A DNA stretch of 53,958 bases, taken from a virus. Lineage: Duplodnaviria; Caudoviricetes. This document shows positions 7,958 through 44,800 of this stretch, piece by piece. Position numbers and translations under genes: made by a program. The notes under the pieces were generated by a model. It was given only the letters and a program-made list of their open reading frames with translations. It did no database searches and was not told the origin of the DNA. Positions within the stretch are counted from its first letter, which is position 1. Each line of letters begins with the position of its first letter. Location: positions 1 to 53,958 of IMG/VR virus record IMGVR_UViG_3300008448_000114. The stretch is one strand, 5' to 3'.

Positions 7958-10900
7958 TTACCTTCCTCCACCACCTCTACCGCTACCACCTCTTCCTCTT
8001 CCGCTTCCGCCACCTCTTCCACTACCTCCGCGGCTTCCTTTTTTACCTCCACTTTCTCCAGGCTCAAAAAACATCGTAAATCCTCTGCGCGTTTTCTTTT
8101 CTTGTTTTCTTTCTTCTTGAACAACCTCAGGCCTTTGCTCTTTAAGTATTTTAGTTCCAATATTTCTTAGGTCTCCACTCACCATATTTAAGAAAAACCC
8201 GAATTTCCCACCTATCATCATATTGGCAAATATGTACCCGTAAGCAGTAAGCCCTGCTGCAATAGCCGTCTCTTTGCTGTCAACTTTAGTGTCTTCACCT
8301 GATGCAGCATAGTATCTGCGTATATCGTTAACTGTTGTAGATAACCCGTGAATTGCAGATATTCCCGAGAACGAATTAACCAAATCTTCCCATCCCTTTG
8401 TTGGCTCTTCAGCACTATAGAAAGCTCTTATTGCCTCGTCATACGTCTTGCCTCCATAAATCTCAATAGGTCTTACGTTGTACATATTAAACCAAGACGC
8501 TTCTTTCTGCCTCATCTGCATCATAGCCTTTTTCCTTTGACGCTTATCCATCGTCAATAACCTCTCAGTAGCACCTTCTTTGTACATGTAAAATGCTGCC
8601 ATCCCTAATGCTGTCCTCCAAAAGAAACTTGTTTGAGGGTCTATTGCTGTTGACGCTATGCCATTAATTATAACTTCATTTACAGCTTTACTTTTAGCTT
8701 TAAGACCAGTCTTTATTGTTTCAATATACTTGTCCCATCCCTCTTTCTTGTCAAGTTCTTTAATCTTGTTTTCAACTGCTTTTGGGTCGTCATCATCTCC
8801 TGCCGCAGCATATACCGCTGCTGCCGTGCTTAGATACAGCACACCCATGTAAGACCTGAAAATAGAATAGGTTATTGACGGAACTATACCCTCAAGGACA
8901 GCCCTTGTTAAGTACTCGGCTCTTTTACCTAAAGAAAGGCCGCTTCTAGTTGAGAAGGCAAGCTTTATGTATGAGTTATACAACTGATGCTGGGTAGTTG
9001 GATACCCTTGAAGAAACCCTGTTAGAATAGCTAAAGGGTTATCTTTTGCAAGAGATATTTTACGTTTATCAGTATCAAACATATTCCTGATTCCTCTACC
9101 TAAGAACGGAGCTAAAAGCTGTTTTCTAAGAGGCTGCCTTGTAAATGAAGGCAAGGAGAATTGTCTGTCAGTAAACGAATCGGCTACCGAAGAAGCTTGA
9201 AGTACAGCATCCATATTAGATGCTCTGTAAACGCCTCTCTCATCTTTAAACTTTTGATGGTCTAAATACTCGCCTGTTATACGCTTAAACGCTTCCTCAA
9301 ACCTTGACATCCACCCGTGTTTCTTAACAGCCATATCCTGCCATGACGCTACTCTTTGCTGTCTTTGTAATTCCTCAGGAGTTTTCTTAAATTCATACAG
9401 GAAGTTATCAGCATACAAAGACATTACCTTATAGACAGGAGAGCCTGTCAAGTTAGCTATCTCTACATAGTCGTCCCATTTGTACGTTCCTGTATCTGTA
9501 GTATATCTTGATTTTTTAGGAGAAAGAAGTTGCAATATCTGATTTCCAAACTTTTTATTTTCAAAACCTAATGCAGACGTAAGTTTTCCAATATTTGCAG
9601 GGAAGTCGGCAAACAGCTGTCTTGTTACAGATATAAGCCATACCCTTGCAGCAAACGACTGAGCAGAACTCATCAGCCTAAAAGTATATCCAAAGTCATC
9701 ATTTACTACCCTTTCATTATGTGACAGATTAGCCTTAAGTCTTTCTGTAAGATTTTTATCAACACCTTCAAGATACGCAGCAGAGAACTCATTAACATCC
9801 TTAGCTGTCTTTACATCGTTGATAGCATCACCAAGACCTTTTATCTGCTGAAGGAATGGCATTACCTCTACCATTAGATTCAATGCCTTCATATTATGAA
9901 GGAGGACTTTGTTTGCGTCAAGGTCTATCGTTCCAGTCTCTCCTGACCGTGATATGGTCTGCCCCTTATCAATACCAAGATTTGAGAACTGGCCATTTAG
10001 GTACGCCATAGGGTCTGTTACCTCTGTTACTGTCTTATCCCCGTAAACTCTTATTGGGAAATAGTTTTTAACAGAAGCTCCCATATTGCCTACTATAACC
10101 TGTGCAGCCTCAAATGTTTCTCTATTTTGATTGATATGCTCTCTCCATCCGGCTAATCCTTCTTTTTGCTTATCTGTAAGCAAGTCCATAAGCTTACCCT
10201 CTGTCAGGTCTTTAAGCGTAGTTGTGCCTCCATTCGTAAGGGCAGCATAAGCTATCGCATCCATAAACTTATTGTTGTTTCCTTCAAGAGATTTAAAGGA
10301 TACGCCACCCTTAGTGAAGTAATCGAACATCGTACCTTCCATGAACGTTACCCCTTTCTCTCCAGCCTTAACTTCAAATATGTTCCTCTGAAGAACTCTG
10401 TCAATAATCTGAGCAGGGTTATTTGAGATATGGTCTATCTGATGGGCAACAATAGCTGCCATCCTTACCGATATATCATTCAAGAATGAAGCAGCACGAC
10501 CTTCTCTTAATTTGTTCCTAAGACTCATTCCAAGTATTGAGCCGGACACATCGTATGTCTTCAGAACTTGACCTATCGCCTTTTTGATGGTTGCATGGTT
10601 GCTTTTATCAGAAAACGCAATCATTGCCGTTTGAAGCTGACCAAGTTTTGATTGAGTCTTAACCATAGCGGCATCAATAGATGCAGCCATAGGGCCAAAG
10701 ATTTCTCTTTCAAGGTATCCCATATTAAGGCGGTCAAATTCGTTATACAACTCGTAATCAAGTGCTGTTATCTTTAGAAGGTCTAAATTACGAGATATGG
10801 CATCAGCCGAAGGTGTTGCTCCCTCTACATCAGTAAACGTTCTTGCAAAGTTTCTGAAAGCATTTTGTACAAAACCTGTTAATCCTGTTGCTGTTATTTC

Positions 10901-13900
10901 ATTTCTTCTTGCAGCAATTTCAGTACCCCACTTGTATCCACCATCTCTTTGTTTCCATCTTAATGCTTTAACATACTCGGTATATACCATATTGCTATAG
11001 TTTCCATAGTCGTACACCTGAGATAGCGCAGACGACAGGCTAAGCATATTTGCCGGACTTAAATTGCTTAAGTAATCATCCGACAGAGACGTCATAAAGC
11101 TAAGGAACTGCTGATATAGCACTCCGTTTGGTATTTTATTTCTTATATCGGAAAGCTCATCTGCTAGCTCTGTTTTTATCTTACCTACAAGAGCTGTTGT
11201 TTCTATTTTAATATCCTGCTCTTTATCAGCAATTATTCTGTTTATATCCCCTAAGTCTGTAAGCATCAGTACACCATACTGTTGCATGATGTCTGCTTGT
11301 TGCTGTGGAGTAAGCGCGGATATATTGTTCTTTCTTTCTTGTACATCTTCAACAGCTTTTTTAAGCTCCATCATCTTCTTGTAGTCAAGCATTGACAAAG
11401 TCTGCGTATTAGCCTTATTTATAAGGTCTTTTATTTTAGTCAACAGACTCTTATGCTCGTCGGCTATTTTTTGCTGATTAGACGGAGATATTGAATTAAG
11501 TATATCTATCGCATCTTGTATTGACCCTAATTTTAGAGCAACAATATCTTTGATGTGTCCGTTTAGTTTTGACAATTCCTCAAGAGATGCACTGCTATCA
11601 GGAAGTTCAGATAAAGGGAATCCAAGTATAGCTTTTACCTTATCAAAATACTCTCCAGAATACTTTGTAGATGAAGCTGTTTCAAGTCTGTCAAATGACT
11701 TTTGCACATCAGCAAGAACTTTTTTTCTGTATGCTTTTTCTACGACTTTTGATATTTCAGTAGCTCCTTTATCTACTGCTGTCATTATATCGTCTCTTGA
11801 GAAAATATTATCATTTAAGTCTTTGATAATTGCTTTTATCTGCCCTGTAGTAAGTTGAGCTCCTCTTCCATATCTATTTTGGAAATCTTTAAGTATCAAC
11901 TTAACAGCATCTTCAATCTTTTTAGCTCTGTCTTTTACATCCTTTATAGCACGTATCTGATTGGATACAGCATTTTTAATCCATTGAGAACTGGTCATAT
12001 TAACCATATCCTCTCCTTCAAACATTTGTCTATTAGCAGCAGGGAATGAAGCCCTTACGGCATCAGAAGCGATAGCAGGAGCAAGGCTCATCATGTCTAT
12101 CCAGGACACTCCGGCAGGAACAGTTCCGTTTGCATACATCCTGTCAATGGATGCTTTTACCTGACCAAGTACGGTATCGTATGCCTGTTTTGCTGTAGTC
12201 TTTGTTCTGCTGCCTACATTTGCATTTGCTATATTTTGAGCCGCCTGATTTGCGCCAGTTACAATAGCTTGGGTGCTTGGGGACGCAAATGCTTGGCTTA
12301 TCCTGCGCTGTCTTGCTGCCGCTTGCTCTGCTATCTTGCGCTCATTATACGCCTCTCCTACATAATTCTCTATTTGCTTCTGTACAGCATTATTATTGAA
12401 CTTTCCTGTTGCATTTGCTATAACAGCAGCAGATACTTCTGATGTAGCTATAGTTCTTGCTTCTTCAAGTGTTCTGCCTTTAGACAGCTCTCTTTGCATT
12501 ACAGCATTAGCAAGGTCAATCATTTGAGACTTAAATGATGGCTCTTGCTGTCTTGCCATGAATTGAGTTTGCTGCTCTATCTCCACAGCGTTCTCATCAA
12601 ATACCACATAATTGGACCCTCTTGATGTTGCTGATGTTGCTCCACGAGATATGCTTTCTGCTGGATATTTTATACCATCAATCCCGTTTTCAAGAAGTAA
12701 TAATGACGCCTCCTTATCGCTACCAATAGTTCTAGACAACTGTAAATATATGTTTTCTCCAGTTGTTTTTAATCCTGGCGTGTCTTCTGTTTTAAATCTA
12801 TTTTTAAATCCATCAACTTTTTTATCTATCTTTTCAATTATATCATTAAATCCTTCCTTATCCCACTCCAGCCAATTATATTCAGATGGCTGTTTGCCTT
12901 TATGCAGTGTAACATCATATAGAGAACCTCCTTCTTTAATAGAATACCTGCCTGATTTAAAGTCGTTTATTACATCCTCAAGCGAGTTTAATCTATCGTT
13001 CTTTATCTCATCTGTCCATGAAGTGTCTTCTATTACTTGTTTATGGTCTTCTAGGCTTTTAAGTATTTTGTTTTTATCAAAACCTTGATAAAGCCCAACT
13101 GAAACTTTATAAAGTCCTTCTCCTTCATTATATCCTTTTTTATAAGCACCAATTGTCGCATACAATTCATCATCAACTTCTTTCCCATCTTTTAATAAAT
13201 TACTTGAAGATAATGTCCTCCTATAAGTTTCTGCAATATCTTTTACATCCGTAAAGTATAAACCCCATCCAAAAGCCTGCACTCCTTCGCCTGTTCCTAT
13301 CTTTTCTGTAGTAAACTTACCAAAGCTATAAGGGCTTCCGTGATATGCTTTTACCTCAAACAGCTTATCCCTGTCCGACATCTTATTGAAAGTAACAGCC
13401 TCTCCTGCAAGTAATGATGCGTTGGCTCGGTTAAGGAACTCATCAAGCGTAAGCAGGTCTAACTCTACCTTGCTAAGATTAAATATTCCTACATACTGAG
13501 ACAGCTTACCTATCAACCTCCTTAACCAGTTTCTAAACCCTTGCTTCTGCACCTCATTAAAAAACTGCTCTCCTCTGTCACCAATAGCGGTAGCCAAAGC
13601 CTCGTTCTCCATCTCTTCAGTAGATAATCCTTCATACAACGGGTCTGCTTGCAGCTTATCCATGTATTCACTATCACGAATCAGCTCACGACCACGATTG
13701 TAAACCTCAGGAGCAATCTCCTTAGCAGCATTCAACCACAGATGCCCGAACTCATGAATAGGCGTATTATAGTTAGCGTAGTCAGGATTCAGATACACGT
13801 CACCATTCAATACCCTACCATAAACCACACCACCCTTCGTCATCAGGTCCCTTGCAGCTTCATCTTTTAATGCTGCCTGGAAGCCTTTCTTATCCATTAT

Positions 13901-16900
13901 AACCTTGACATTAGGGAATGCTTTTTTAAGCCTATCTGTAAGCGTTTTAACGGCCTTTTTATTTGCTGTATTTGCAGGTGCGTTGGATTTGTTAATCGCA
14001 TCAATTAAGGCGTTTCTTGCCTCTACTACGCGATTATTTGCTTCTGATATGACAGGAGGTATAACAGGAATAGGAGCTGCGTAATTAGTTCCAGTCATCC
14101 ATTGTTTAACCTTGTCAACAACTTGTTGCCCCATCTGCCTAACAGCACGCTCTTCTCCTTCTGTTACCTGCTGAGCCAGTTCATCCATTAACTGAACTTC
14201 CTGACCAGGATTTATTGTCCTTGTATAGTTCTGTATTACGGGAGTATTGTCGGGGAGTCCTGTTATTTCTTGGACTGCTTGCTGCGCTTGGCTGCCGAAA
14301 TTGCGATTGCGAGCATCTGCTGCCTGCTGCGTGGTTTGCCCGACGCCCCCTTCTCCTTGCCCGATTTTTTGTTGTCCTTGCTCAACTCCCGTAGGTTGTA
14401 TGAGATTGCTTGGTTGACCGCCTTCTTGCTGCGGCCTTGTGCTGATTTCAGTGGCATATTGTTGTGAATTTAAGTAACGTGATTTTAATGTTTCAAGGTC
14501 ATTTAACCTTTGTGTAAGATTTTCTACATCTGCCATCCTGTTAGAGTAAGGCATATCATTCTGTAAGGCAAACTCATAATCTACTTTAGCCTTCTCTATC
14601 AGGTCTTTAGTGTTCTGTATTTTGGTAGCTAAAAACATTTCAGGATTAGATACAATAGACGCTTCATTAGCCCTAGCAGCATTGCTGTTCTTCTCATTAG
14701 CTACGTACAAATCCCTTAATCTGTTAGAGAAACTCATCCTGTCAATAGGAGTCATATCCACCTCTTCAGCTTGAGCTGTTTGCTTTTGTTCTTCTGTCCT
14801 TGCATCAAGGATGCCATTATTCCCTATCATCGTATCAGACAAGCCAAAATAGTCGTAGATAAGCGTCTTCATTTCAGTAGGCTCAATAGCAAACTGCTGT
14901 TCAGCATATTCTACATCATTTAAAGCCTTATCAGCGTTCTGCATATATGTCTCTATTACTTGAGCAGACGCTTCAGGAGACACCTGTCCGTTCTCTACCA
15001 TTGTGCTTATCTCCTTAGCCTTAACAATATTATCAAGAGCTATTGTCCTTTGTTGCATCGTAGTTTTAGGACTAAAGTTCATCGACATAGCCGTAGGAAG
15101 CCATACGTCTCTTACCATCTCATAAACAGGAAGATTAAGCTCGGACTCTTTTATATTGCCGGACTCTACCTCCTGAATGACTTTAAGTATAGGTGCTATG
15201 TTTTCTTTTTGAGTAAGAGCAGATATAACAAAAGCCTCTTCCTTTGTAATGTTAAGTTCTTTGTTTTTGACAAGCTGTTTCCTTATCTCCTCTTGTGCCG
15301 TATTCCTGTTCTTCATATTTTGGGCAAGTTTTGTACCTCCCCTAAATATGGCAGATGTGCCTATCATTGTAATCAACATATCAAGACTCTGCTGTGCCGT
15401 AAATACCGTAGGATTAAACGTAGCATTCGTCATTGTGTTGAACGTGCTTTGCAATATTGCATTGCCTTTATCTGCAACCTCTTCTTCTAAATATTCAAGA
15501 GAGCCTGACTTTAAAACCCTTCCTGTTCTTTTTGCAAATAACCTGGCATACTCTTTAAATGCTTGAGCCCTTGTTTGCGGAGACATGATACGCTTAATCA
15601 AGTCTTTCGTAAGAACAGACTTACCCCTTCTTAATCCAAGAAGAGATGTTTCTCTTGTAATCATTTCGGAGAAAAATTCAATCCCATTATAAAGCTGAGA
15701 ATAAACTATCTGTTCTATCCCCGTTAATCCAGCATCAGCAGCTTCTCTCATGGCTCTACCTGTTCCTGTTGCAGCAAGATACGCATATCCTCCTGCCGGT
15801 CCACCTGCGATAAAAGCTCCTGAAAATGCCAGCATTTGAGGAAGGGCTTCTCCAATTTGTCCTACAATCTTTCCAGCATAACTATCAGCCTCTATATTTG
15901 TTTCAATCCTATTTTTATACTCTCTTATTGATGCTGATACGTTTGCAGCATTAGGGTTGTATCCACTCCAGTCAAAAGATGAAAGCTTATTGCCTGTTTC
16001 GCGAATACCTTCCATCATCCCTCTTATAGTATTTATAGACTTAATAGCAAATATTATATTTTTAGGAGTGCTTTTATTAAGTGTAGTTACATCCTGCGTT
16101 AATGGTGACAGCAAAGGAAAGCTGTACATATTAGTGTCGGTAAACTTGCTATTGTAGTTATCGTCAATCTCATGAAGTCGGTTTAACACAAATTTGCCTC
16201 TTTCGCTAAAAAGAGCACTTTCGTTAAATATCTTTAAACTTCCATTGTAAGAGTTTACCTTCTTTTCAAAGTCAGGCATATTCTCACTCAAAAATGCTTT
16301 AAGTTCTTTTTCAGGGAAAAGACTTTTAGCTCTTTTAGCTACCTGGTCAAGTTTTAATAACTGCTCATTTGTGCTTTCTATAACCTCTGGATTATTCAAC
16401 ATCAAATCCTTACCGGTAGTGTTTAAGAACTCAATATCGTCTGGCTTAAGGTCTGCATATCTATCTTTGTAGTTGCTCCCTTTCTCCATAAGGAACGACT
16501 TAAGTTTAATGTATCTTACAGCATCTCTAACGTTCTTATCATCGCTATTTTCAAGTGCATTGTATCCGTCATTTAACTCTTTAAGCGCAACTGTATATCC
16601 TGACTGATTATTTATCTTAAGTATTCCTGCTTCTATCAATGACTGGCTTATTTCAAGGTCTATTTTAGCGTCTTTAAAACCGCCTATAACTCCTTCTACT
16701 TCAGGAAGGAAATCTTTTAAAGTAGCATATATTGTTTCAATATCCTTGTTGTCAAGTTTTGTTTTAGCGGCATCTACAAGACTTGCCATGCCCTCTATGC
16801 TGTTAAGATACATGCCCTTTCTTCCGCCTGCCTCATCAAGTATCTGTTGCATAGCAGGTATAAGTTGAGGATTCTTTTTTACCTCAAGAGCAAGAACACC

Positions 16901-18337
16901 ATTATTTATCTTTTGAACTTCCTTACCAAGACCAGTACGCACAAGCTCCTTAAGTAAGAACTCGCCACCTTCAGCAGTTTTAGATAGTAGTGTAAATGGT
17001 GATGTCGCAATACCACCAACAGCCTCCAATAATCTTTCATACGCATCATCGTCTGATTTGCTTTGCTGTCTTATTTCTGCCCATTTCTGTTCAAATTCAT
17101 TTGTAAAGGTAGCCGCTGTCAATACCAACTTAAACCAGTCGGGTGTCTTTTTATCAGACATTAATCCTGTATAGGCAGAAGCAACATTATTCATTTGCTT
17201 GTTTCTATCATCTCCAAGCGTTTTTATCTTAATGTCGGCTTCAGCTCTTGTTAATGAACCTTCTGTTACTTGAGTCTCTATGTCAGATACTCGGTCATCA
17301 AAGTTTACAATTAAGTCGTAATCATATTTAATGGATATTGGCGTTACTTTTTTATAGTTTGCTACAGGAATAAACTGCCCTGTAGATTGGTCATATACTC
17401 CATCTATATCTTTAACTTTCTCTACAATCTTAACTTGCTTTCCTTCGCTGTTAAGTACCGGATTACCTTGCTCATCTACCTTGTTGGTAGCCCTATAATA
17501 CATAGGCTTTGCAAAAGGGGCCATTGTATTTGAATTATACCCATACAATGTAAACCCTCTGAATATGTCACCATCTTTTACTTTATCTTTTTCAAAAGCA
17601 TCTACAAATCCTTCAAATGTATTTATGCCTTTTTGATAGGTCTTCTGTGCCATATCCTCGTACTCAGGAACCGTGTCATCTCCCTGGTGAGTAGAAACCC
17701 TCTCCCATAACTCTCCATTCAATAAACGTCTCCATCTTTCAGTAGAAGCCTTTAGATTTCTTTGTACAATATAGTCAGTAGCCTTTACCTGCTTTATAGT
17801 AGGATTATTATCCTTTATGTAAGACATATTGGTATCTTTCTGATATGTCTCATATTCCTTTTTATACTTTTGTTCAATATCTCTTGTGCCTTGTCTTATT
17901 TGTCTATCCCTTCTTCTTTGGCTCTTTTTATCATTGCCTGGGTTGCGCTCAAAGGCCTGCTGTTGTAAAGTTTCTATTTCAGCGTCTTTCTGAACCTTTA
18001 ACTCTTCTGCCTTCTTTAACTTCTCTTCCTCTGTTGGAGGGTCAGGCAACTTCTCATTCTGTATTGTTTGTAAAGCGTCTTTAGGAAGCTCTGTATAAAC
18101 TTTGTCATCAACAACATAACCCTCTGCTTTCGTTTCTGTTGCTACAGGCTTTAATGACTGATAGATGTCCTTTGCCTGCTTGTCCTGCATGAAGGTTTCA
18201 TCTTCTTCTACTTTACCAAACTCTGTATTGGTAATAGAATCTAATTCAAATAAAGACGCTTCCGATGGTCCGACAAGAGGTTCTTGAATATCTTGTAATT
18301 CAGGATTGATGAATTGTTCGTTTAAGTCTTGAGTCAT
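7958..18337 (-). CDS. Giant polyvalent ejection (cargo) protein with zincin metallopeptidase and ADP-ribosyltransferase-like domains
   Basis: 3459 aa. HEFGH motif (13756-13742) followed by ENEALA; YHGS...IGTGEG.QAFGWGLYFT...DGIKY...NYVVFD block (~13350-12570); G/R-rich C-terminus. Follows the tail genes. Confidence 0.8.
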   Translation of the reverse strand: MTQDLNEQFINPELQDIQEPLVGPSEASLFELDSITNTEFGKVEEDETFMQDKQAKDIYQSLKPVATETKAEGYVVDDKVYTELPKDALQTIQNEKLPDPPTEEEKLKKAEELKVQKDAEIETLQQQAFERNPGNDKKSQRRRDRQIRQGTRDIEQKYKKEYETYQKDTNMSYIKDNNPTIKQVKATDYIVQRNLKASTERWRRLLNGELWERVSTHQGDDTVPEYEDMAQKTYQKGINTFEGFVDAFEKDKVKDGDIFRGFTLYGYNSNTMAPFAKPMYYRATNKVDEQGNPVLNSEGKQVKIVEKVKDIDGVYDQSTGQFIPVANYKKVTPISIKYDYDLIVNFDDRVSDIETQVTEGSLTRAEADIKIKTLGDDRNKQMNNVASAYTGLMSDKKTPDWFKLVLTAATFTNEFEQKWAEIRQQSKSDDDAYERLLEAVGGIATSPFTLLSKTAEGGEFLLKELVRTGLGKEVQKINNGVLALEVKKNPQLIPAMQQILDEAGGRKGMYLNSIEGMASLVDAAKTKLDNKDIETIYATLKDFLPEVEGVIGGFKDAKIDLEISQSLIEAGILKINNQSGYTVALKELNDGYNALENSDDKNVRDAVRYIKLKSFLMEKGSNYKDRYADLKPDDIEFLNTTGKDLMLNNPEVIESTNEQLLKLDQVAKRAKSLFPEKELKAFLSENMPDFEKKVNSYNGSLKIFNESALFSERGKFVLNRLHEIDDNYNSKFTDTNMYSFPLLSPLTQDVTTLNKSTPKNIIFAIKSINTIRGMMEGIRETGNKLSSFDWSGYNPNAANVSASIREYKNRIETNIEADSYAGKIVGQIGEALPQMLAFSGAFIAGGPAGGYAYLAATGTGRAMREAADAGLTGIEQIVYSQLYNGIEFFSEMITRETSLLGLRRGKSVLTKDLIKRIMSPQTRAQAFKEYARLFAKRTGRVLKSGSLEYLEEEVADKGNAILQSTFNTMTNATFNPTVFTAQQSLDMLITMIGTSAIFRGGTKLAQNMKNRNTAQEEIRKQLVKNKELNITKEEAFVISALTQKENIAPILKVIQEVESGNIKESELNLPVYEMVRDVWLPTAMSMNFSPKTTMQQRTIALDNIVKAKEISTMVENGQVSPEASAQVIETYMQNADKALNDVEYAEQQFAIEPTEMKTLIYDYFGLSDTMIGNNGILDARTEEQKQTAQAEEVDMTPIDRMSFSNRLRDLYVANEKNSNAARANEASIVSNPEMFLATKIQNTKDLIEKAKVDYEFALQNDMPYSNRMADVENLTQRLNDLETLKSRYLNSQQYATEISTRPQQEGGQPSNLIQPTGVEQGQQKIGQGEGGVGQTTQQAADARNRNFGSQAQQAVQEITGLPDNTPVIQNYTRTINPGQEVQLMDELAQQVTEGEERAVRQMGQQVVDKVKQWMTGTNYAAPIPVIPPVISEANNRVVEARNALIDAINKSNAPANTANKKAVKTLTDRLKKAFPNVKVIMDKKGFQAALKDEAARDLMTKGGVVYGRVLNGDVYLNPDYANYNTPIHEFGHLWLNAAKEIAPEVYNRGRELIRDSEYMDKLQADPLYEGLSTEEMENEALATAIGDRGEQFFNEVQKQGFRNWLRRLIGKLSQYVGIFNLSKVELDLLTLDEFLNRANASLLAGEAVTFNKMSDRDKLFEVKAYHGSPYSFGKFTTEKIGTGEGVQAFGWGLYFTDVKDIAETYRRTLSSSNLLKDGKEVDDELYATIGAYKKGYNEGEGLYKVSVGLYQGFDKNKILKSLEDHKQVIEDTSWTDEIKNDRLNSLEDVINDFKSGRYSIKEGGSLYDVTLHKGKQPSEYNWLEWDKEGFNDIIEKIDKKVDGFKNRFKTEDTPGLKTTGENIYLQLSRTIGSDKEASLLLLENGIDGIKYPAESISRGATSATSRGSNYVVFDENAVEIEQQTQFMARQQEPSFKSQMIDLANAVMQRELSKGRTLEEARTIATSEVSAAVIANATGKFNNNAVQKQIENYVGEAYNERKIAEQAAARQRRISQAFASPSTQAIVTGANQAAQNIANANVGSRTKTTAKQAYDTVLGQVKASIDRMYANGTVPAGVSWIDMMSLAPAIASDAVRASFPAANRQMFEGEDMVNMTSSQWIKNAVSNQIRAIKDVKDRAKKIEDAVKLILKDFQNRYGRGAQLTTGQIKAIIKDLNDNIFSRDDIMTAVDKGATEISKVVEKAYRKKVLADVQKSFDRLETASSTKYSGEYFDKVKAILGFPLSELPDSSASLEELSKLNGHIKDIVALKLGSIQDAIDILNSISPSNQQKIADEHKSLLTKIKDLINKANTQTLSMLDYKKMMELKKAVEDVQERKNNISALTPQQQADIMQQYGVLMLTDLGDINRIIADKEQDIKIETTALVGKIKTELADELSDIRNKIPNGVLYQQFLSFMTSLSDDYLSNLSPANMLSLSSALSQVYDYGNYSNMVYTEYVKALRWKQRDGGYKWGTEIAARRNEITATGLTGFVQNAFRNFARTFTDVEGATPSADAISRNLDLLKITALDYELYNEFDRLNMGYLEREIFGPMAASIDAAMVKTQSKLGQLQTAMIAFSDKSNHATIKKAIGQVLKTYDVSGSILGMSLRNKLREGRAASFLNDISVRMAAIVAHQIDHISNNPAQIIDRVLQRNIFEVKAGEKGVTFMEGTMFDYFTKGGVSFKSLEGNNNKFMDAIAYAALTNGGTTTLKDLTEGKLMDLLTDKQKEGLAGWREHINQNRETFEAAQVIVGNMGASVKNYFPIRVYGDKTVTEVTDPMAYLNGQFSNLGIDKGQTISRSGETGTIDLDANKVLLHNMKALNLMVEVMPFLQQIKGLGDAINDVKTAKDVNEFSAAYLEGVDKNLTERLKANLSHNERVVNDDFGYTFRLMSSAQSFAARVWLISVTRQLFADFPANIGKLTSALGFENKKFGNQILQLLSPKKSRYTTDTGTYKWDDYVEIANLTGSPVYKVMSLYADNFLYEFKKTPEELQRQQRVASWQDMAVKKHGWMSRFEEAFKRITGEYLDHQKFKDERGVYRASNMDAVLQASSVADSFTDRQFSLPSFTRQPLRKQLLAPFLGRGIRNMFDTDKRKISLAKDNPLAILTGFLQGYPTTQHQLYNSYIKLAFSTRSGLSLGKRAEYLTRAVLEGIVPSITYSIFRSYMGVLYLSTAAAVYAAAGDDDDPKAVENKIKELDKKEGWDKYIETIKTGLKAKSKAVNEVIINGIASTAIDPQTSFFWRTALGMAAFYMYKEGATERLLTMDKRQRKKAMMQMRQKEASWFNMYNVRPIEIYGGKTYDEAIRAFYSAEEPTKGWEDLVNSFSGISAIHGLSTTVNDIRRYYAASGEDTKVDSKETAIAAGLTAYGYIFANMMIGGKFGFFLNMVSGDLRNIGTKILKEQRPEVVQEERKQEKKTRRGFTMFFEPGESGGKKGSRGGSGRGGGSGRGRGGSGRGGGGR
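14263..14457 (-). CDS. Small basic protein nested out of frame in the giant gene
   Basis: MPLKSAQGRSKKAVNQAISYNLREL...GKPRSRQQMLAIAISAAK, with leader TAAATTCACAACAAT-ATG resembling the capsid gene leader. Confidence 0.6.
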   Translation of the reverse strand: MPLKSAQGRSKKAVNQAISYNLRELSKDNKKSGKEKGASGKPRSRQQMLAIAISAAKRSKQSKK

Positions 18338-18341
18338 AGAA

Positions 18342-18349
18342 CAAATATA
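18342..18349 (-). promoter_or_regulatory. Bacteroidota-type -7 box, probably leaderless transcript
   Basis: TATATTTG-TTCT-ATG directly before the giant gene. Confidence 0.6.
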
Positions 18350-18874: not shown

Positions 18875-19468
18875 TTATTTTTTCTTCAAAGAAAATTTAG
18901 GACCAGCTTTAACAGCACCTTGTACTTCAGCTGTTTTAGAAACAATATCAGCGGTTTGAGTAGGGCTTAATGGATTAAATCCTACCCTTCCTGCCACCTC
19001 ACGACTATTTACTTTACTCATAAATTCAGAAGAGAATTTAGTACTTGTAGTAAACTGACCAGGAAACTTATCAACAGCAGTCTTTGCTATCTTACCCATA
19101 TAGTTATCATCAACATCTTTCTGCTGAGCAGGAGTTAATTGATTGTAAGACATTTCTTTTCCACCATAGCTAATCTTCATCTTGCCCTGCTTTATACTAT
19201 CTAAAGAAAAGTTTCTGTAATCCTGTAATTGTTTCTGAATCGTTCCTATATCGTCTTTTTTAATAGTAAATGAAGGATTTATTTTTCTGTACTCTTCCAT
19301 CATTTGGAATCCTTTATCTCCTTTATCAAGTTCAGGACTACCCTTCATCCCTTTAGAATCCAGCCAATCAACATAACTGTTCCATTGCTGCATAATATTC
19401 CCATCCATATTATTTACTGGGCTTGCTGTAGGCGTTACAGGATTGTTCTTTTTCTTTAAAAATGCCAT
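18875..19468 (-). CDS. Hypothetical virion-associated protein
   Basis: Start moved to ATG 19468 (MAFLKKK), just after the upstream stop. Confidence 0.6.
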   Translation of the reverse strand: MAFLKKKNNPVTPTASPVNNMDGNIMQQWNSYVDWLDSKGMKGSPELDKGDKGFQMMEEYRKINPSFTIKKDDIGTIQKQLQDYRNFSLDSIKQGKMKISYGGKEMSYNQLTPAQQKDVDDNYMGKIAKTAVDKFPGQFTTSTKFSSEFMSKVNSREVAGRVGFNPLSPTQTADIVSKTAEVQGAVKAGPKFSLKKK

Positions 19469-19478
19469 ATTATATGTA

Positions 19479-21041
19479 TTATTCGTTATCAGGTATAAAC
19501 TGTTTAGATTCTTTCCATTTTTTTCCTTTTCTACCTTCTTTAAATTCTGTTTTAGCAGCATCAATAGGAATGGCATCCTGAACGTACGAGTTCATATTTG
19601 AAATAGATGGAGCTAAATTAGCAGCTTTAGGGTCTAATATAGTTGTTCTTTCCATTTGAGCATACCATATACCGTCTCTTGACAGCTCGGCTTTTACGTT
19701 TGTAGATGCACTTCTAAGTTTAGAATTTCCTCTTACATTTTGGTCAGCCTGAGCTTTTGTAATACCATTAGCAGATGTAAGATTCTTTCCTTCTGCATCT
19801 TTTAATGGAACTTGCGTATAGTAAGTAACAGTAACCTTTCCATTGGAATCAGGAGATGAAAATTCGTATCCGCCTGCTCTAACTCCACTTGCTCCTGGGT
19901 GGTCTATGTTTGACCAACCATTCATATAAGCATTCCATTCATCTTTATTGAACTTACCGCTTTTAATTGCTTTAGTAAGTGTAGCATCAAATCCTTCTTC
20001 CTCAGATTCTTTTTCTTTTTGGAAAGCAAATCTGCTTCTAGACAAATTTAACTGCCATTGTTTTAATAAGATGCTCTGCGTTCTGTAATCATAAGTATCC
20101 TTGATAACCTGAGGCATTTTTGCTTGAAGCTTTTTAAAAGCAGCTAATTCAAGTTCGTTATCTATAAATTGACCGTCTCCTTTCTGAAACCAAGGCCTCA
20201 TATCTACTCCTGACAAATCTTTATAGGCATCCATTACGCCATTAAATTCGGATTGTCTTTCCCATTCAGGCAATGATTTATATACAGCTAATTGAGGAGA
20301 ATAATGCCTTAAAAATCCTTTTGGCTGAGTATTAGCAAAAGATTCTGTTTGGCCTACAATTCCATAAGGGTCGTAAATACGTGTTTCAGTAAGCTGGTCT
20401 GCATATATCCCTAATTTAGGGTTATTCGTCAAAGTCACTACATCAGGAGTATAAGGTTTTACATTCCTTGTAATAGCGTCATCAAGTTTTACTTCATCAA
20501 ACTTTTTCATGTACTTTAAGTCTGTTACATTGAACTGGTCAATAGGCGTAGCAACACCATTACGGTCAAATGTAAGGCCTTCGCGCTGGTCTAAAGGAAG
20601 CTCTCTTTTTCTTATTAATTCAACTAAGTCGTCTTCATAATAATTAGCATCCTTCATGGCCTCTTTTAATACAGGAAGTGTTTTTTCATCTTCTATTCTT
20701 TCACTAACAGATTTTGTTATTAATGAAGTTGCTTTAGCCATCTTTTCATTTAACTGTTTTCTTTTTGCTACATCGCCTGCATCTAAACTTGGCTTATTAT
20801 TATAATAAAAATCGTTTGCTTCTTTACGCGCATTAAAAATAACATTATCGTCTTGACTTCTTGTTGTTCTTTTGTCAACCATCATTAAGTCTAACTGCTT
20901 CTCGATGTCCTTTTGAGCCTGTGCCTGACGCTTTCTGATAGCAGCAGCGTTCTGGACAATAGCATTGTACGTCTTATTAAAATCTATTACCTGTGCTTCA
21001 AACGCGCCTACCGCCGATGGTATTGGTCTAACTTCTGCCAT
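19479..21041 (-). CDS. Ejection (cargo) protein
   Basis: 520 aa, helical and charged, between the small and giant cargo genes. Confidence 0.55.
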   Translation of the reverse strand: MAEVRPIPSAVGAFEAQVIDFNKTYNAIVQNAAAIRKRQAQAQKDIEKQLDLMMVDKRTTRSQDDNVIFNARKEANDFYYNNKPSLDAGDVAKRKQLNEKMAKATSLITKSVSERIEDEKTLPVLKEAMKDANYYEDDLVELIRKRELPLDQREGLTFDRNGVATPIDQFNVTDLKYMKKFDEVKLDDAITRNVKPYTPDVVTLTNNPKLGIYADQLTETRIYDPYGIVGQTESFANTQPKGFLRHYSPQLAVYKSLPEWERQSEFNGVMDAYKDLSGVDMRPWFQKGDGQFIDNELELAAFKKLQAKMPQVIKDTYDYRTQSILLKQWQLNLSRSRFAFQKEKESEEEGFDATLTKAIKSGKFNKDEWNAYMNGWSNIDHPGASGVRAGGYEFSSPDSNGKVTVTYYTQVPLKDAEGKNLTSANGITKAQADQNVRGNSKLRSASTNVKAELSRDGIWYAQMERTTILDPKAANLAPSISNMNSYVQDAIPIDAAKTEFKEGRKGKKWKESKQFIPDNE

Positions 21042-28414: not shown

Positions 28415-28440
28415 ATTACTTTGTTTGATACAAATATATA

Positions 28441-28500: not shown

Positions 28501-28527
28501 TACGCAAATATACGATTATATACGAAA

Positions 28528-31787: not shown

Positions 31788-32081
31788 TCACCATTTTACA
31801 CGATTCGCCCAGTAGGCCGCGCTCATCTTTCCTTTATTGATATTACGTGCGTGTCTTGCTTTAAATGATGCTCTCTTTTTCTTCATGCGCTCAGACTCTC
31901 CAGCTTTAGGTTTGCCGGCAGTTTCTGCTCCTTGCTCCCCGAACCGTATTGTCTTTACTTGACTGCCTTCTTTAGCAACTACAATATGTGATTTCTTTGG
32001 ATGATTAGGAGTACGTTTAGGTTTATTATATCCCGATACTCCTGCTCTTTCAAGTCTTGAATCTTTCTTTATAAATGGCAT
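31788..32081 (-). CDS. Basic phage protein
   Basis: GYNKPKRTP.HP.KSH.V.AK...IRFG.QG...SFKARH...SAAYWA...KW. Confidence 0.7.
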   Translation of the reverse strand: MPFIKKDSRLERAGVSGYNKPKRTPNHPKKSHIVVAKEGSQVKTIRFGEQGAETAGKPKAGESERMKKKRASFKARHARNINKGKMSAAYWANRVKW

Positions 32082-32485
32082 ATTATTTAACTTTTTTAAC
32101 CAGTCTTGGTTTTGTAATAGTTTCGTAAAGTTCTCCTTTTCTTTTTTGTTTTGGTATTATTCTACTTGCAAATTCAGCAGCTAAAGCTTGGGCTGCTGGT
32201 ATATAAGGAGTTGCAACTGAAGCTATAGGCATCATTGACATCATTGCCCCACCAACTCCAACAGCTAAAGACCTTAATAATCTTTCTTTTTTCTTTGCTG
32301 TTTGCTGTTTAATAAATTCAGGAGTATTAAAATCAGCACCATCTTCTTCAGCCTGTCTTTTTTTAGCCTCAAATAATGATTTTGCTTTTGCCTTTTCTAC
32401 ATCTGTTCTGGTATCTTGACTAATTGTAGCCATTTTACCACCACCATTATTTTTTTTCTTTAATGGCATATTATTTAACTTTTTT
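32074..32485. repeat. 24-bp direct repeats flanking the 128-aa gene
   Basis: AATGGCATATTATTTAACTTTTTT at 32074-32097 and 32462-32485. Confidence 0.85.
32083..32469 (-). CDS. Basic protein (MPLKKK start) with a hydrophobic segment
   Basis: 128-aa ORF coupled to its neighbours. Confidence 0.6.
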   Translation of the reverse strand: MPLKKKNNGGGKMATISQDTRTDVEKAKAKSLFEAKKRQAEEDGADFNTPEFIKQQTAKKKERLLRSLAVGVGGAMMSMMPIASVATPYIPAAQALAAEFASRIIPKQKRKGELYETITKPRLVKKVK

Positions 32486-32633
32486 CTTCCATTTTAGAAT
32501 CCTCTTCCTCCTCATCTTCATCTTCTCCCATATCCTCCATCTCTTTCAGAGCTTTATATAAGGCCATAAATTTAGCCATTTCTAAAGCTGTTAAGCTATA
32601 CTTCTTGTCTTTGCTTTTTTTCTTTAATGGCAT
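32475..32633 (-). CDS. 52-aa protein, basic N-terminus and acidic C-terminus
   Basis: Hand translation MPLKKKSKDKKYSLTALEMAKFMALYKALKEMEDMGEDEDEEEEDSKMEEKS. Confidence 0.6.
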   Translation of the reverse strand: MPLKKKSKDKKYSLTALEMAKFMALYKALKEMEDMGEDEDEEEEDSKMEEKS

Positions 32634-35056: not shown

Positions 35057-37093
35057 CTATCTTATGTTACTAATGTCATACGTCTGAACGAACCCCACAG
35101 AGTCCTTCTTTTCTTTCAACACATTCCGTACGTCACCAGCTGCCGCAACAAGCGCAATCATAAAAGCAACGGTAATATCCGACTTGGTTCTGTTGAAATG
35201 GTCGTACTCAAGCATATCCTCAAATATTTCCTTAAAGAACATTTTTTCAGAATAATTATCAACCCAAAACTGGGCCAGCTCAAGCTGTTTATTCAGCGAG
35301 AACGGGTCTTTTGGTGATACACCCCACGTCTGCACCGTCTTGGCTTTCCTGTTAGGGTCAAGCACCGACTTAGGCGTTTTAGTGATAAAGTTCTTATGCC
35401 CTTTGTCAATAAACCACTCAAAATAATCATCATTGGCGTTCTCGTACGTAGCCTTACACCCGAAGTAGTGACAAGCATACAACACCTCTGTATGAAACAG
35501 ATTCTTCGTTTTAGGTCTTCCTACATACATAGCCACCGGCATGCCCGTGTTCTCCGGGTCGGTAGGGTCGTACTGCTCATATACCACAATAACGCCATTA
35601 GAACCCTTACCAACAATAATAGTAGAGGCAAAGGGGTCAACTCCTATCTTATACTGATGCGTGTTGGCCGGCTTCTTACCTGAATCATCATAAATAATTC
35701 CATTAGGGAATCTAGGTTGCTTTAGTAGCAGCCACTTGCCATTCGGGTCATCTCGGTAGTCCACCTTATTTTTTTCATCCCATCCAAACGTAACCCTACG
35801 TATTGATGGCTTATTATCTTTAAGATAATCTAACTGCTGCCTAATCATTTGGATATTAAAGAAAGACTCGGACTCATCAGCAGCAAATGCCTCTTCCTCA
35901 TTAAATGGCATCATCCGTTTCTCCTCCAATCTCATCTCATCATCCTCTATCTTTTCTATCCGCTGACGCAAGTATTCCTTTGCCCCAATCCGTATCTCTT
36001 CAAGCGTAAGCGTAGTGGTCTCTTGCAAAAACTTCTCCTGGTCTTTAGTAGGAGTATCTATGACAGATATGCCATATTTATCAATAAATCCTTCGTACCC
36101 GTCGTATGCCGGTTTAAAGTATCTGTACAGCCCTGATGGAGTTGTCTTATGGAGCAACTGGTTTGATTCGTTCCATAGCGTCTTATATCCTGCTCCTCCG
36201 TCTTTCATCTTGTTAACGGTAGATGGCAGTTCAGCAAACCCTACCTTCCTACTACCTTTCTCCAGCGTCTTTCTCACAATCGACCAATACCGTTGTATAG
36301 GTACATCTGTCGGGAACTTACCGCCCTCATCGACTAACAGCCTTGTATTTCTTTTAGAGTCATAGCTATTTAGCTTTGTATTTTTAAAATCTATCTGCGA
36401 GTTCAGCCCTTCCGGTTTCTCCCTGATAGATGTCTGCTGCTTCTTTTTAACCCTTGACACTTGTTTCATGAACCTAAGTATCTTTTCGGGGTCATCACCG
36501 GCTGCAATATCCGGCTTCATAAACAGCGGCAGGTTACGAAACGCATACACCACCATCTCCTTAAATACAGACTTGGCATCATCACCCGTTTTGGAAACAA
36601 TACCGCACTTGGCCTGCTCGGTAGTAGTGGCTGTATATAGCATATTGGAGGATGCCTGGGAGGTAGCACCTTCCCTACGTGACTTAACGCGTATCACTCC
36701 AAGAACATTAGAAGACTTCTCGCAGTGGTCGAGGAACAGATACCACCTCCTGTCGCAGTCGCGATACTGAGGCTTATCTCCATTTTCAAGGGTGAAATAA
36801 TTTAAGAAGTAGTAGTATTTACCGGTAATATAAGTAGGTTCTCCGCAGTTCAAGAACCAATGCCCATCACGACATTTGACAAGTTCTTTCATGATAAAGT
36901 CCCACTGCTTATCTGTCCATAGTGGGTTGCCATTAGCATCATACTCCAACTCATCAAAGTATTCGGGTATATCGGTATAACGGAAGTATTGTTCTTTGCG
37001 GCTGTACTTACAGTTCTCCATCGTGTACGCTGCCGGTTGTTTCGGCAGGGAGTACTGGATTCCGTACAAACTTACGCTTTCGTTTTTTTGCAT
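35057..37093 (-). CDS. terL: Terminase large subunit
   Basis: ITGKYYYFLNY, Walker-A-like KSRREGAT, Walker B LLVDEGGK, nuclease motifs IGVDP and YENA. Confidence 0.9.
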   Translation of the reverse strand: MQKNESVSLYGIQYSLPKQPAAYTMENCKYSRKEQYFRYTDIPEYFDELEYDANGNPLWTDKQWDFIMKELVKCRDGHWFLNCGEPTYITGKYYYFLNYFTLENGDKPQYRDCDRRWYLFLDHCEKSSNVLGVIRVKSRREGATSQASSNMLYTATTTEQAKCGIVSKTGDDAKSVFKEMVVYAFRNLPLFMKPDIAAGDDPEKILRFMKQVSRVKKKQQTSIREKPEGLNSQIDFKNTKLNSYDSKRNTRLLVDEGGKFPTDVPIQRYWSIVRKTLEKGSRKVGFAELPSTVNKMKDGGAGYKTLWNESNQLLHKTTPSGLYRYFKPAYDGYEGFIDKYGISVIDTPTKDQEKFLQETTTLTLEEIRIGAKEYLRQRIEKIEDDEMRLEEKRMMPFNEEEAFAADESESFFNIQMIRQQLDYLKDNKPSIRRVTFGWDEKNKVDYRDDPNGKWLLLKQPRFPNGIIYDDSGKKPANTHQYKIGVDPFASTIIVGKGSNGVIVVYEQYDPTDPENTGMPVAMYVGRPKTKNLFHTEVLYACHYFGCKATYENANDDYFEWFIDKGHKNFITKTPKSVLDPNRKAKTVQTWGVSPKDPFSLNKQLELAQFWVDNYSEKMFFKEIFEDMLEYDHFNRTKSDITVAFMIALVAAAGDVRNVLKEKKDSVGFVQTYDISNIR

Positions 37094-37730
37094 GCTGATG
37101 TTCTTTTTTCACAAATTCTATAATAGGCTCTACAAAGTTCCTTCCTCTTTCTGTCAGGTCGTACCTATTTCTCGAACCTACTTTTGTTATCCTCATCAAA
37201 TTAAACTGAATCAATCGTTTTGAAAACTTTAAAATAGACGGAATACTTATGCCGGTATCTTCTGTCCACTTTCTTGACGTAGCGTCTCCTTCCTGATGAG
37301 CGCTAATCCACAACAAAAGTATGATTTCAGTATTTTTTAATTTTGTTCTTTTTCTTACAAGTCCTAACTTAGCATATATTCGAGTCCACGTGATTATATT
37401 GTAATTACGCGGATTCGTTTTGTCATTTGGGACCTCCCAGTAGTACTTAGCCCTGTTCCACTCGGTTTTCCGCATTTTTTTTATCTCTTCCTTTTGGAAC
37501 TTCTCGCGTTTGTTTTTCTCTGTTTTAAGCTTCTCTTCCCACTTAGCCATCATTACTCTATAGTTCTTTGCAAGCCCGTTGTTGCGAAGTGTTAATATGC
37601 TAGCCTTTTTGATATGCTTCTGCATCTTCTTCATGTTCCTGTCACGCATATTCTTATTCGTCTTCAGCAGACTTCTTGACTTGGCTCTTTCAACAGCAAG
37701 CTTATAGCGTAACTTATTGAGCATTTCCAT
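37008..37730 (-). CDS. Basic coiled-coil protein with C-terminal MarR-like winged HTH
   Basis: LKNTEIILLLWI...ISIPSILKFSKRL...RNRYDLTERG. Start uncertain. Confidence 0.55.
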   Translation of the reverse strand: MEMLNKLRYKLAVERAKSRSLLKTNKNMRDRNMKKMQKHIKKASILTLRNNGLAKNYRVMMAKWEEKLKTEKNKREKFQKEEIKKMRKTEWNRAKYYWEVPNDKTNPRNYNIITWTRIYAKLGLVRKRTKLKNTEIILLLWISAHQEGDATSRKWTEDTGISIPSILKFSKRLIQFNLMRITKVGSRNRYDLTERGRNFVEPIIEFVKKEHQHAKKRKRKFVRNPVLPAETTGSVHDGEL

Positions 37731-37786
37731 GACCTTCTCTCCGCTATATGTGCGGCTGGCCTTTACGAATATGCGTTCACACTTCT

Positions 37787-38110
37787 TTACTTTTTTAGGA
37801 ACGTCTCCAGCGGATTCCTCGATACTAACGGCTTCTCCTCCTCCTTCGACTCTCCCACTTTGAGTTCCTTCTTTAACCACAGCAGGTTTTGTGCTACGTC
37901 TTTGCTGTCCACCATTGCTTTCCATACGCGTTCAAATGTTTTATCGTTTTTAGATTTAAAGGATACGTATTCTCCGTTTAGCTCTTCTGCAAGCTTTACT
38001 ATCTGATAGTTCAAGGCATGGTACAGTCCTTGCAGTCCGTCTGCCTTATAGGTCTCCAACTCCTTTTCGAGTTCCTCTATCCTTTGTTTCAGTTTTACTA
38101 TATCTGTCAT
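37787..38110 (-). CDS. Small helical protein, terminase small subunit candidate
   Basis: Size and position upstream of TerL only. Confidence 0.4.
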   Translation of the reverse strand: MTDIVKLKQRIEELEKELETYKADGLQGLYHALNYQIVKLAEELNGEYVSFKSKNDKTFERVWKAMVDSKDVAQNLLWLKKELKVGESKEEEKPLVSRNPLETFLKK

Positions 38111-38745: not shown

Positions 38746-38790
38746 TGCTGTTTCTATTTGTCACAAATATAGGAAATTTTGTGACTAAAC

Positions 38791-40912: not shown

Positions 40913-40955
40913 TTAAAATGTTTTTACAAATATAATGGAAAATACTTTACCAAAT

Positions 40956-44656: not shown

Positions 44657-44800
44657 ATGAGACAGATTAAAAAGCATTTCGATACGCAGAGACAAGCGGA
44701 GAACTATTTGAATATACTCTACGGAGTGTACGACTATGTTAAACTCATCCGCTTTCCAATGCTCACTGAATCAGGCACTTATATATTTGAAGTTCACTAA
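44657..44800 (+). CDS. 47-aa hypothetical protein
   Basis: Hand translation MRQIKKHFDTQRQAENYLNILYGVYDYVKLIRFPMLTESGTYIFEVH. Confidence 0.6.
   Translation: MRQIKKHFDTQRQAENYLNILYGVYDYVKLIRFPMLTESGTYIFEVH

Follow-up and report, generated by a model that had tools for sequence, protein, structure and literature searches.

Can the low-complexity linker of a giant phage protein be the second reading of another gene? The question arises in a DNA stretch of 53,958 nucleotides (nt), here called the window, from a virus of the Caudoviricetes (IMG/VR virus record IMGVR_UViG_3300008448_000114; estimated completeness, 75%). Its minus strand carries a giant gene of 3459 codons (7958–18337), part of the virion module and probably of the large polyvalent protein type, and a much smaller open reading frame (ORF) lies inside it in another frame (14263–14457, minus strand). 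From the comparison of related sequences, we consider it highly probable that this small ORF is a true gene that codes for a protein and lies entirely within the 3459-residue virion gene of the polyvalent type, in its +1 frame.

The nested ORF begins with an ATG located 3880 nt into the giant gene and comprises 64 codons and a TAA stop; its codon position 1 coincides with giant position 2. The encoded peptide (MPLKSAQGRSKK...KQSKK) is a DUF6496-like protein and is strongly basic, with an isoelectric point of 11.25 and 18 Lys and Arg residues versus 3 Asp and Glu residues. The giant frame reads the same DNA (14264–14458, minus strand) as residues ~1294–1358. The initial annotation, made from the window sequence, had placed a 64-residue out-of-frame ORF at 14263–14475 within a Q/G-rich giant-frame linker. 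The ORF exists, but the coordinates up to 14475 include an 18-nt leader; the linker is Q/G/E-rich over residues ~1294–1358 and is disordered in the AlphaFold2 prediction. The layout is that of the Rz/Rz1 type, with a small ORF wholly within a larger one on the same strand and in a different frame, and we found it likewise on 35 further contigs.

Intactness and frame-specific constraint in relatives

Searches with alignments of the nested peptide led to 47 related contigs, which comprise 28 viral loci, 14 metagenome loci, and 5 loci from metagenome-assembled genomes (MAGs). Among the viral loci are two IMG/VR loci, L003 and L004, that were reached via the giant protein, to which they are 38% identical overall. 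The nested ORF is uninterrupted on all 47 contigs, of which 45 were found with the nested peptide itself, a route that favors intact copies; one copy (L035) runs off its contig end. L003 and L004, the only two found through the giant protein, are both intact and contain the full 64-codon ORF; their nested frame is 84% identical, whereas the giant frame, compared over the 130 residues around it, is 59% identical. A disrupted frame in relatives, which the initial annotation had named as grounds for abandoning the gene, is therefore not seen on the contigs fetched. The ORF starts with MPL or MPI across the contigs, and one free-standing copy starts with ML. Counting the window, 36 copies are embedded in same-strand ORFs in the giant's phase, and 12 are free-standing. 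The embedding ORFs span from 696 to more than 2700 codons as far as the contigs reach. The GenBank phage collection gave no match to the 3 kb around the site by blastn, and none by tblastn to the window peptide or to a free-standing homologue, Lys-rich queries that the low-complexity filter may mask.

Variation within the overlap follows the nested frame. The mean pairwise differences at nested positions 1, 2, and 3 are 0.30, 0.20, and 0.43 among 32 embedded sequences, and the giant third position is thus the least variable and the giant first position the most variable. In a giant-frame codon alignment of 31 loci, the diversity at giant third positions is 0.16–0.34 in the overlap versus 0.51–0.76 in the flanks. 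Synonymous differences among identical giant codons are similarly depleted inside the overlap relative to outside, at 2/57 versus 190/517 for L033, 2/43 versus 222/476 for L036, 2/48 versus 183/370 for L003, and 3/38 versus 193/384 for L038 (Fisher p from 2e-7 to 1e-10); the contrast is safest for these four, as the flanks of distant pairs align poorly (~21% identity). Furthermore, the nested-frame identity exceeds the giant-frame identity in all 465 sequence pairs (means, 67.3% versus 44.2%), in an alignment that was built in the nested frame and somewhat favors it. Conservation sets in at about −14 relative to the nested ATG, and variation is back at saturation (0.69) directly after the nested stop.

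The giant frame carries a constraint of a different kind. It has no stop codon within the overlap in any of the 32 embedded copies examined, but one to eight stops in each of nine free-standing copies. When the window peptide was recoded with the phage's own codon usage, the giant frame acquired a mean of 7.9 stops and stayed open in none of 20,000 recodings. The embedded copies are thus written in a particular set of codons with which the long ORF stays open. The first overlapped giant codon is always NAT (Tyr, Asn, or Asp) and is followed by GCN, and the nested ATG is thereby preserved. The composition of the linker has a simple source, because the AAR codons of nested Lys residues, read one base earlier, become NAA and encode Gln, Glu, or Lys, with T at the first base forbidden. 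The overlapped part of the giant would then be a disordered Q/G/E-rich linker with a sequence largely dictated by the nested codons, and selection on the giant frame in the overlap would mainly serve to keep it stop-free.

Both frames are thus maintained by selection, the nested frame by its codon-position pattern and identity, and the giant frame by its lack of stops. A single DNA stretch very probably encodes two proteins, and both readings are intact in related phages. The earlier proposal of a true nested gene that shapes the linker is supported, and the frame-specific conservation across giant-gene relatives, which had been suggested as a check, favors the nested frame.

The same conservation could in principle have been kept for another reason, for example as a processing or docking motif of the giant, an RNA or DNA element, or a recombination joint, with the DUF6496 ORF as a passive relic. 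The giant-frame peptide is indeed recognizably conserved in 12 of the 120 giant homologues listed, and one of them, P0002, has an insertion of ~270 residues with one complete and one partial copy of the stretch at its ends, which suggests recombination. We nevertheless regard this explanation as very unlikely. Selection on the giant alone predicts the opposite of the observed pattern, in which nested position 2, the third position of the giant codon, varies least and nested position 3, the giant's first, varies most. The uniformly higher nested-frame identity in the 465 pairs argues against it as well, and the limits of conservation coincide with the leader and the stop of the nested ORF. In addition, free-standing copies retain the protein while their other frame fills with stops, and the nested frame is predicted to fold where the giant-frame stretch is predicted to be disordered.

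An ORF of 65 residues on the plus strand (14270–14467) covers nearly the same DNA. Of 31 embedded loci, 27 have this antisense frame open, and ORFs as long as the nested one are not rare in the giant's alternative frames, but we give next to no credence to the idea that the antisense ORF is the functional one or that the 64-residue ORF is a mere product of chance. The antisense frame is interrupted in the other 4 embedded loci and in 9 of the 10 free-standing ones, and the free-standing homologues lie on the same strand as their neighbors with their own ATG and stop. Chance can explain neither the 47 intact copies nor the family matches nor the codon-position pattern. The antisense ORF itself seems to be a side effect of the constraints on the two sense frames.

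Family, predicted fold, and proposed translation of the nested product

The window peptide matches the DUF6496 profile (PF20106) with 20.6 bits and E = 5.9e-4 over profile positions 4–50 of 58. Matches to DUF6496 at E ≤ 0.01 were obtained for 31 of 40 aligned homologues (best E, 1.3e-6). For phrog_2423, the window peptide has E = 0.035, and 17 of the 40 homologues match at E ≤ 0.01 (best, 6.2e-9). Many database homologues of the nested peptide carry a precomputed PF20106 label, and PF20106 is found on 17% of the members of an Atlas neighbor cluster. On these profile matches, the predicted nested protein is probably of the DUF6496/phrog_2423 kind. The initial annotation had pointed to a phage protein type of the form MPLKKG.S...IS.NI.EL...G.P..QA.AIA and had proposed a profile search with the peptide; this family is real and corresponds to DUF6496/phrog_2423. 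Homologues are abundant, since a profile search of 1.84 billion representatives returned 176 clusters (at 50% identity) with E ≤ 1e-3, mostly of 40–90 residues and starting with MPL, and a word-indexed search returned 1902 proteins with E ≤ 1e-3 among 8000 scored candidates. The nested profile had no matches among the PDB sequences or in NCBIfam, and a literature search found no mention of DUF6496.

AlphaFold2, given a 40-row alignment, predicts the nested peptide with a local confidence score (pLDDT) of 89.1 and a predicted template modeling score (pTM) of 0.73. The model contains two helices (residues 11–29 and 45–56) and a Lys/Gly-rich loop between them. In the prediction for the giant frame over the same DNA, the pLDDT is 32–41 at residues ~1297–1338 and 77–84 in the flanking helices, and this stretch of the giant is predicted to be disordered. 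The nested model matched nothing in the PDB or among viral model structures at E ≤ 0.001. A homodimer prediction scored 0.08 against a mark of 0.42, which is not evidence either way.

We observed the DUF6496 family in four arrangements: free, fused at the N-terminus, fused at the C-terminus, and embedded out of frame. The module is fused in frame at the C-terminus of P0154, P0156, P0160, P0161, and P0163 (135–205 residues), in which unrelated N-terminal parts end in ...GGK-MPLKK. It stands at the N-terminus of P0205, P0223, P0236, P0256, and P0262 (121–179 residues), followed by an acidic helical tail. Among the free-standing copies, that of L030 follows a 1238-residue protein with an LPD38 domain, and that of L029 precedes an SU10-type adaptor. 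The nested protein is highly charged, is encoded within the virion module, and has a recurrent neighborhood. On these grounds, we suggest with low confidence that it binds nucleic acids or acts as an accessory inside the virion, and that it is produced along with the injected giant.

The nested start resembles the other gene starts of this phage. Its putative initiation leader (14458–14471, minus strand) is A-rich, lacks a Shine-Dalgarno sequence, and also codes for the giant. Such leaders are the rule for most genes of the phage. In Flavobacterium johnsoniae, A at positions −3, −6, −12, and −13 is reported to be a positive determinant of initiation (PMC6847099). All four positions are A at the nested start in the window. 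The same holds for 5 of 250 further internal ATGs in the giant and for 7 of the 24 gene starts examined, and the leader of the giant itself lacks A at every one of the four. The 20 nt upstream of the nested AUG are 45% A and 20% G+C, close to the average of the 24 gene starts (49% and 20%) and unlike the giant's other internal ATGs (34% and 40%). In the window, the region from −25 to +25 around the nested AUG has a predicted folding energy of −3.2 kcal/mol, which is the 11th percentile of the 250 internal ATGs; the gene starts of the window average −2.39 kcal/mol. At 30 other loci, the nested AUG has a mean of −1.76 versus −6.63 kcal/mol for other internal ATGs, with a median percentile of 0.025. 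The initial annotation had likened the leader to that of the capsid gene. The likeness holds in the generic sense that the leader is A-rich and without a Shine-Dalgarno sequence, as for most genes, but no capsid gene is securely identified in the window.

Bacteroidota-type promoters have the consensus motif TAnnTTTG. One such motif, TATATTTG (18342–18349, minus strand), lies just upstream of the giant's ATG, and it is the nearest TAnnTTTG upstream of the nested gene except for one inside the giant at 17614–17621. With this consensus, no promoter-like motif was found shortly before the nested gene, in the same-strand interval from the ORF to 17614. Overall, TAnnTTTG shows no enrichment (66 occurrences versus 55 expected). 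The TATATTTG motifs at 18342–18349, 28431–28438, 28505–28512, 38764–38771, and 40927–40934 (minus strand) and at 44782–44789 (plus strand) lie in or near the intergenic spaces that precede gene blocks. Located 5–12 nt ahead of the giant ATG, the first of them would make the giant mRNA leaderless or nearly so.

The start-site features and the lack of a nearby TAnnTTTG together favor internal initiation on the giant mRNA. The nested protein would thus be translated independently from the late mRNA of the giant gene, at its own AUG. The leader before this AUG is A-rich, is predicted to be unstructured, and lacks a Shine-Dalgarno sequence, a type also seen in the other genes of the phage and in Bacteroidota.

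Programmed ribosomal frameshifting could reach the same frame from the giant frame and would yield a truncated N-terminal fragment of the giant with a DUF6496 tail. Both frames are on the same strand and the same mRNA, and the C-terminal in-frame fusions among database proteins of 135–205 residues show that the module also occurs in fused form. However, a stop closes the nested frame 1–27 codons before the ATG (1 codon in L020, 2 codons in seven loci, and 4 codons in the window), and the ATG with the following Pro-Leu/Ile is kept in all embedded copies. The free-standing homologues start at the same Met, and no slippery heptamer was seen in the few open codons on inspection by eye, short of a formal scan. 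Because the nested frame is closed shortly before its ATG and Met-Pro-Leu/Ile is kept throughout, we consider a frameshift origin most improbable. The upstream stops and the invariant ATG led us to set aside a programmed frameshift product and to retain initiation at the nested AUG as the preferred route.

Arrangement of the locus and its possible history

The neighbors of the giant gene match tail and virion structural families, and the portal and large terminase genes lie upstream of it. A search with giant residues 1000–1700 as the query found 219 homologous proteins at E ≤ 1e-3 among 2419 scored candidates. Many of these homologues carry polyvalent-protein domains, among them PF18760, PF18798, PF18812, PF18838, and PF18823, of the ART-PolyVal, LPD, and other types; the giant's own ART-PolyVal match is sub-threshold (23.8 bits versus a cut-off of 31.2). 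One homologue is named 'Large polyvalent protein assoc...' by its source, and two have Spirosoma names. In the closest giant homologues, the 'linker' is more conserved than its own flanks. A locus search with an 800-residue piece of the giant found no relatives. The leaders without a Shine-Dalgarno sequence, the Spirosoma names among the giant homologues, and one Chitinophagaceae MAG point to a host among the Bacteroidota, short of a firm assignment; the five MAG loci come from MAGs of mixed taxa.

In two contigs, L042 and L045, an upstream ORF of 434–437 codons ends in TAA 1 nt before the ATG of the small gene and shares the phase of the giant. From the end of the small gene, this phase is open again for 986–1001 codons, with 5–8 stops in between. 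By this phasing, the L042/L045 layout is the apparent split equivalent of the embedded arrangement. The ORFs that flank the small gene in L043 and L044 have weak collinear similarity to the parts of the giant before and after the nested site, and a neighbor in L030 matches the giant region after the nested site but is not collinear. N-part, small, and C-part genes thus lie side by side in the same phases in some relatives, and we propose that the embedded and split arrangements interconvert. In a tree of the peptides, free-standing copies nest inside the embedded diversity.

The DUF6496 kind is far more widely spread than the linker-frame peptide, and for this reason we think, albeit with low confidence, that the small frame came first and that the linker frame of the giant is derived. 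The initial annotation had described the small gene as overprinted inside the giant one. Two frames are indeed kept open, but the direction is probably the reverse, as the small frame is likely the older.

A joint reading of these observations is that the giant grew through an older, free DUF6496 gene that stood between two virion genes. The small gene would be the original one, the arrangement would have flipped at least twice, the small product would be made in excess, and the site would serve as a recombination joint. We offer this account as a tentative one that is more doubtful than convincing. Within it, a strong nested start inside a giant with a poor start would yield an excess of the small protein, which might act as the giant's packaging or ejection partner, and the conserved nested DNA would be a homologous-recombination joint for the exchange of polyvalent-protein modules.

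P0002, with 3479 residues the closest giant homologue among those listed, has its ~270-residue insertion at the nested site. At the edges of the insertion, at residues about 1294–1355 and 1622–1644, are a full but divergent copy of the linker-frame sequence (55% identical) and a partial one that corresponds to its 3′ end (87% over 23 residues). Conserved nested DNA may act as a joint for module exchange. A contig of 9136 bases is the recorded source of two proteins, P0272 (64 residues, with 95% identity to the nested peptide) and P0006 (2206 residues). On that contig, a public gene caller predicted the small gene together with a C-terminal piece of the giant; P0006 starts ~3 residues past the point in the window's giant where the nested gene ends. 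The pair may represent a giant split at the nested site in a very close relative, or a calling artefact.

Three proteins of the window begin with MPLK, the nested one included. The other two are encoded near the portal on the minus strand, at 32475–32633 (52 residues) and 32083–32469 (128 residues), and both begin with MPLKKK. The initial annotation had compared the MPLK start of the nested gene with these basic genes. All begin with MPLK, but in profile comparison the likeness ends after the first 5–7 residues, and we rejected the portal-adjacent genes as homologues of the nested protein. Three consecutive genes after the portal (31788–32633, minus strand) have near-identical initiation regions, AAATAAT or CAGTAAT followed by ATGCCATT..., and the N-termini MPFI, MPLKKK, and MPLKKK. 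The common region could be a strong initiation context or encode a common N-terminal signal. Elsewhere on the minus strand, neighboring ORFs overlap by ~98 nt (18875–19576 and 19479–21041) and by ~86 nt (35057–37093 and 37008–37925). These overlaps exceed the 1–4 nt usual in the window, and the choice of start codon may be the cause, or something else.

Weight of the evidence and known systems

Beyond the biases of sampling and alignment given above with the respective counts, several observations weigh against the nested gene or its proposed history. The length of the nested ORF is unremarkable, as the giant's +1 frame contains open runs of 69, 69, and 54 codons besides the 68-codon run that holds the nested ORF, and when the giant segment was recoded synonymously 20,000 times, 4.0% of the variants kept an open nested frame. 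Because its length is not beyond chance, the case for the nested gene rests on the comparison with relatives. The window peptide scores below the curated gathering cut-off of DUF6496 (20.6 versus 24 bits; 20.3 bits in the genome search). The start-site A scores of 31 other embedded loci are mixed, with four determinants in 10, three in 7, two in 11, and one in 3. Among the sequencing runs searched, no RNA run was listed as containing the stretch. The homology of the split-gene flanks to the giants is weak, with blastp E values from 1e-6 to 1e-10 in a small database and phmmer scores of 12–31 bits with filters off; hmmsearch with a giant-protein profile and phmmer with default filters found nothing among the ORFs beside free-standing copies. 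We treat the flank homology as weak because it was matched only by blastp or with the filters off. Finally, the peptide tree (40 peptides and 62 columns, with many unresolved forks and an unplaced root) requires at least two switches between embedded and free forms.

If the nested gene is genuine, its product would be a very basic, two-helix protein of 64 residues and of the DUF6496/phrog_2423 kind, for which other phages have a small gene that stands free. Gene callers leave nested genes of this sort unreported, and a conserved protein found in many phages of the group would thus be systematically missed or mis-assigned. The locus provides an unusually clean natural case of dual coding, in which the embedded and free forms reveal the cost of the second frame (0 versus 1–8 stops and an altered codon choice). 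What looks like a conserved 'low-complexity linker' in a giant multidomain protein can reflect another gene in the same DNA and not a property of the protein itself. The link of the uncharacterized DUF6496/phrog_2423 proteins to the virion and polyvalent-protein module also indicates a place to look for their function.

Large polyvalent proteins are predicted by Iyer et al. 2017 to be packaged and injected (PMC5512222). The present giant resembles the proteins described there in that its homologues carry ART-PolyVal, LPD, and related domains and that it sits among virion genes. The words 'overlapping', 'frameshift', and 'linker' do not occur in the main text of that paper, and hence an embedded second gene is not part of the polyvalent architecture as that text describes it. 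An embedded DUF6496 gene was not found in the literature searched, and the one paper in which 'polyvalent protein' and 'overlapping gene' co-occur treats them as separate matters.

Compared with the DUF6496 (PF20106)/phrog_2423 family, the nested peptide has the common pattern MPLKK..S..NI.EL...(K/G-rich loop)..PRS..QI.AIA.S.A.K, the typical size of 45–65 residues, and the basic charge. Unlike the family at large, the window copy has a loop insertion (DNKKSGKEKGxxG), falls below the Pfam cut-off, and is not free-standing.

The closest parallel in layout is the lambda Rz/Rz1 pair, in which a small gene likewise lies wholly inside a larger one on the same strand, in the +1 frame and with its own start codon. 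Both Rz and Rz1 products are needed, and related phages have embedded, overlapped, and separated arrangements of the two genes. Rz and Rz1, however, are two interacting lysis proteins, whereas here the host gene encodes a giant virion protein of the polyvalent type, and the embedded product is predicted to be a soluble, basic two-helix protein. The embedded frame here is also that of a family with a wide distribution, and it is probably the older of the two frames.

In classical overprinting, such as microvirus E within D and B within A, a new gene arises inside an older one. The present locus has in common with these cases that two frames are coding, one of them structured and the other compositionally skewed or disordered. 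It differs in that the genome is that of a tailed phage of more than 54 kb, free of extreme size pressure, and in that the small embedded frame is likely the older of the two, the long ORF appearing to have read through it.

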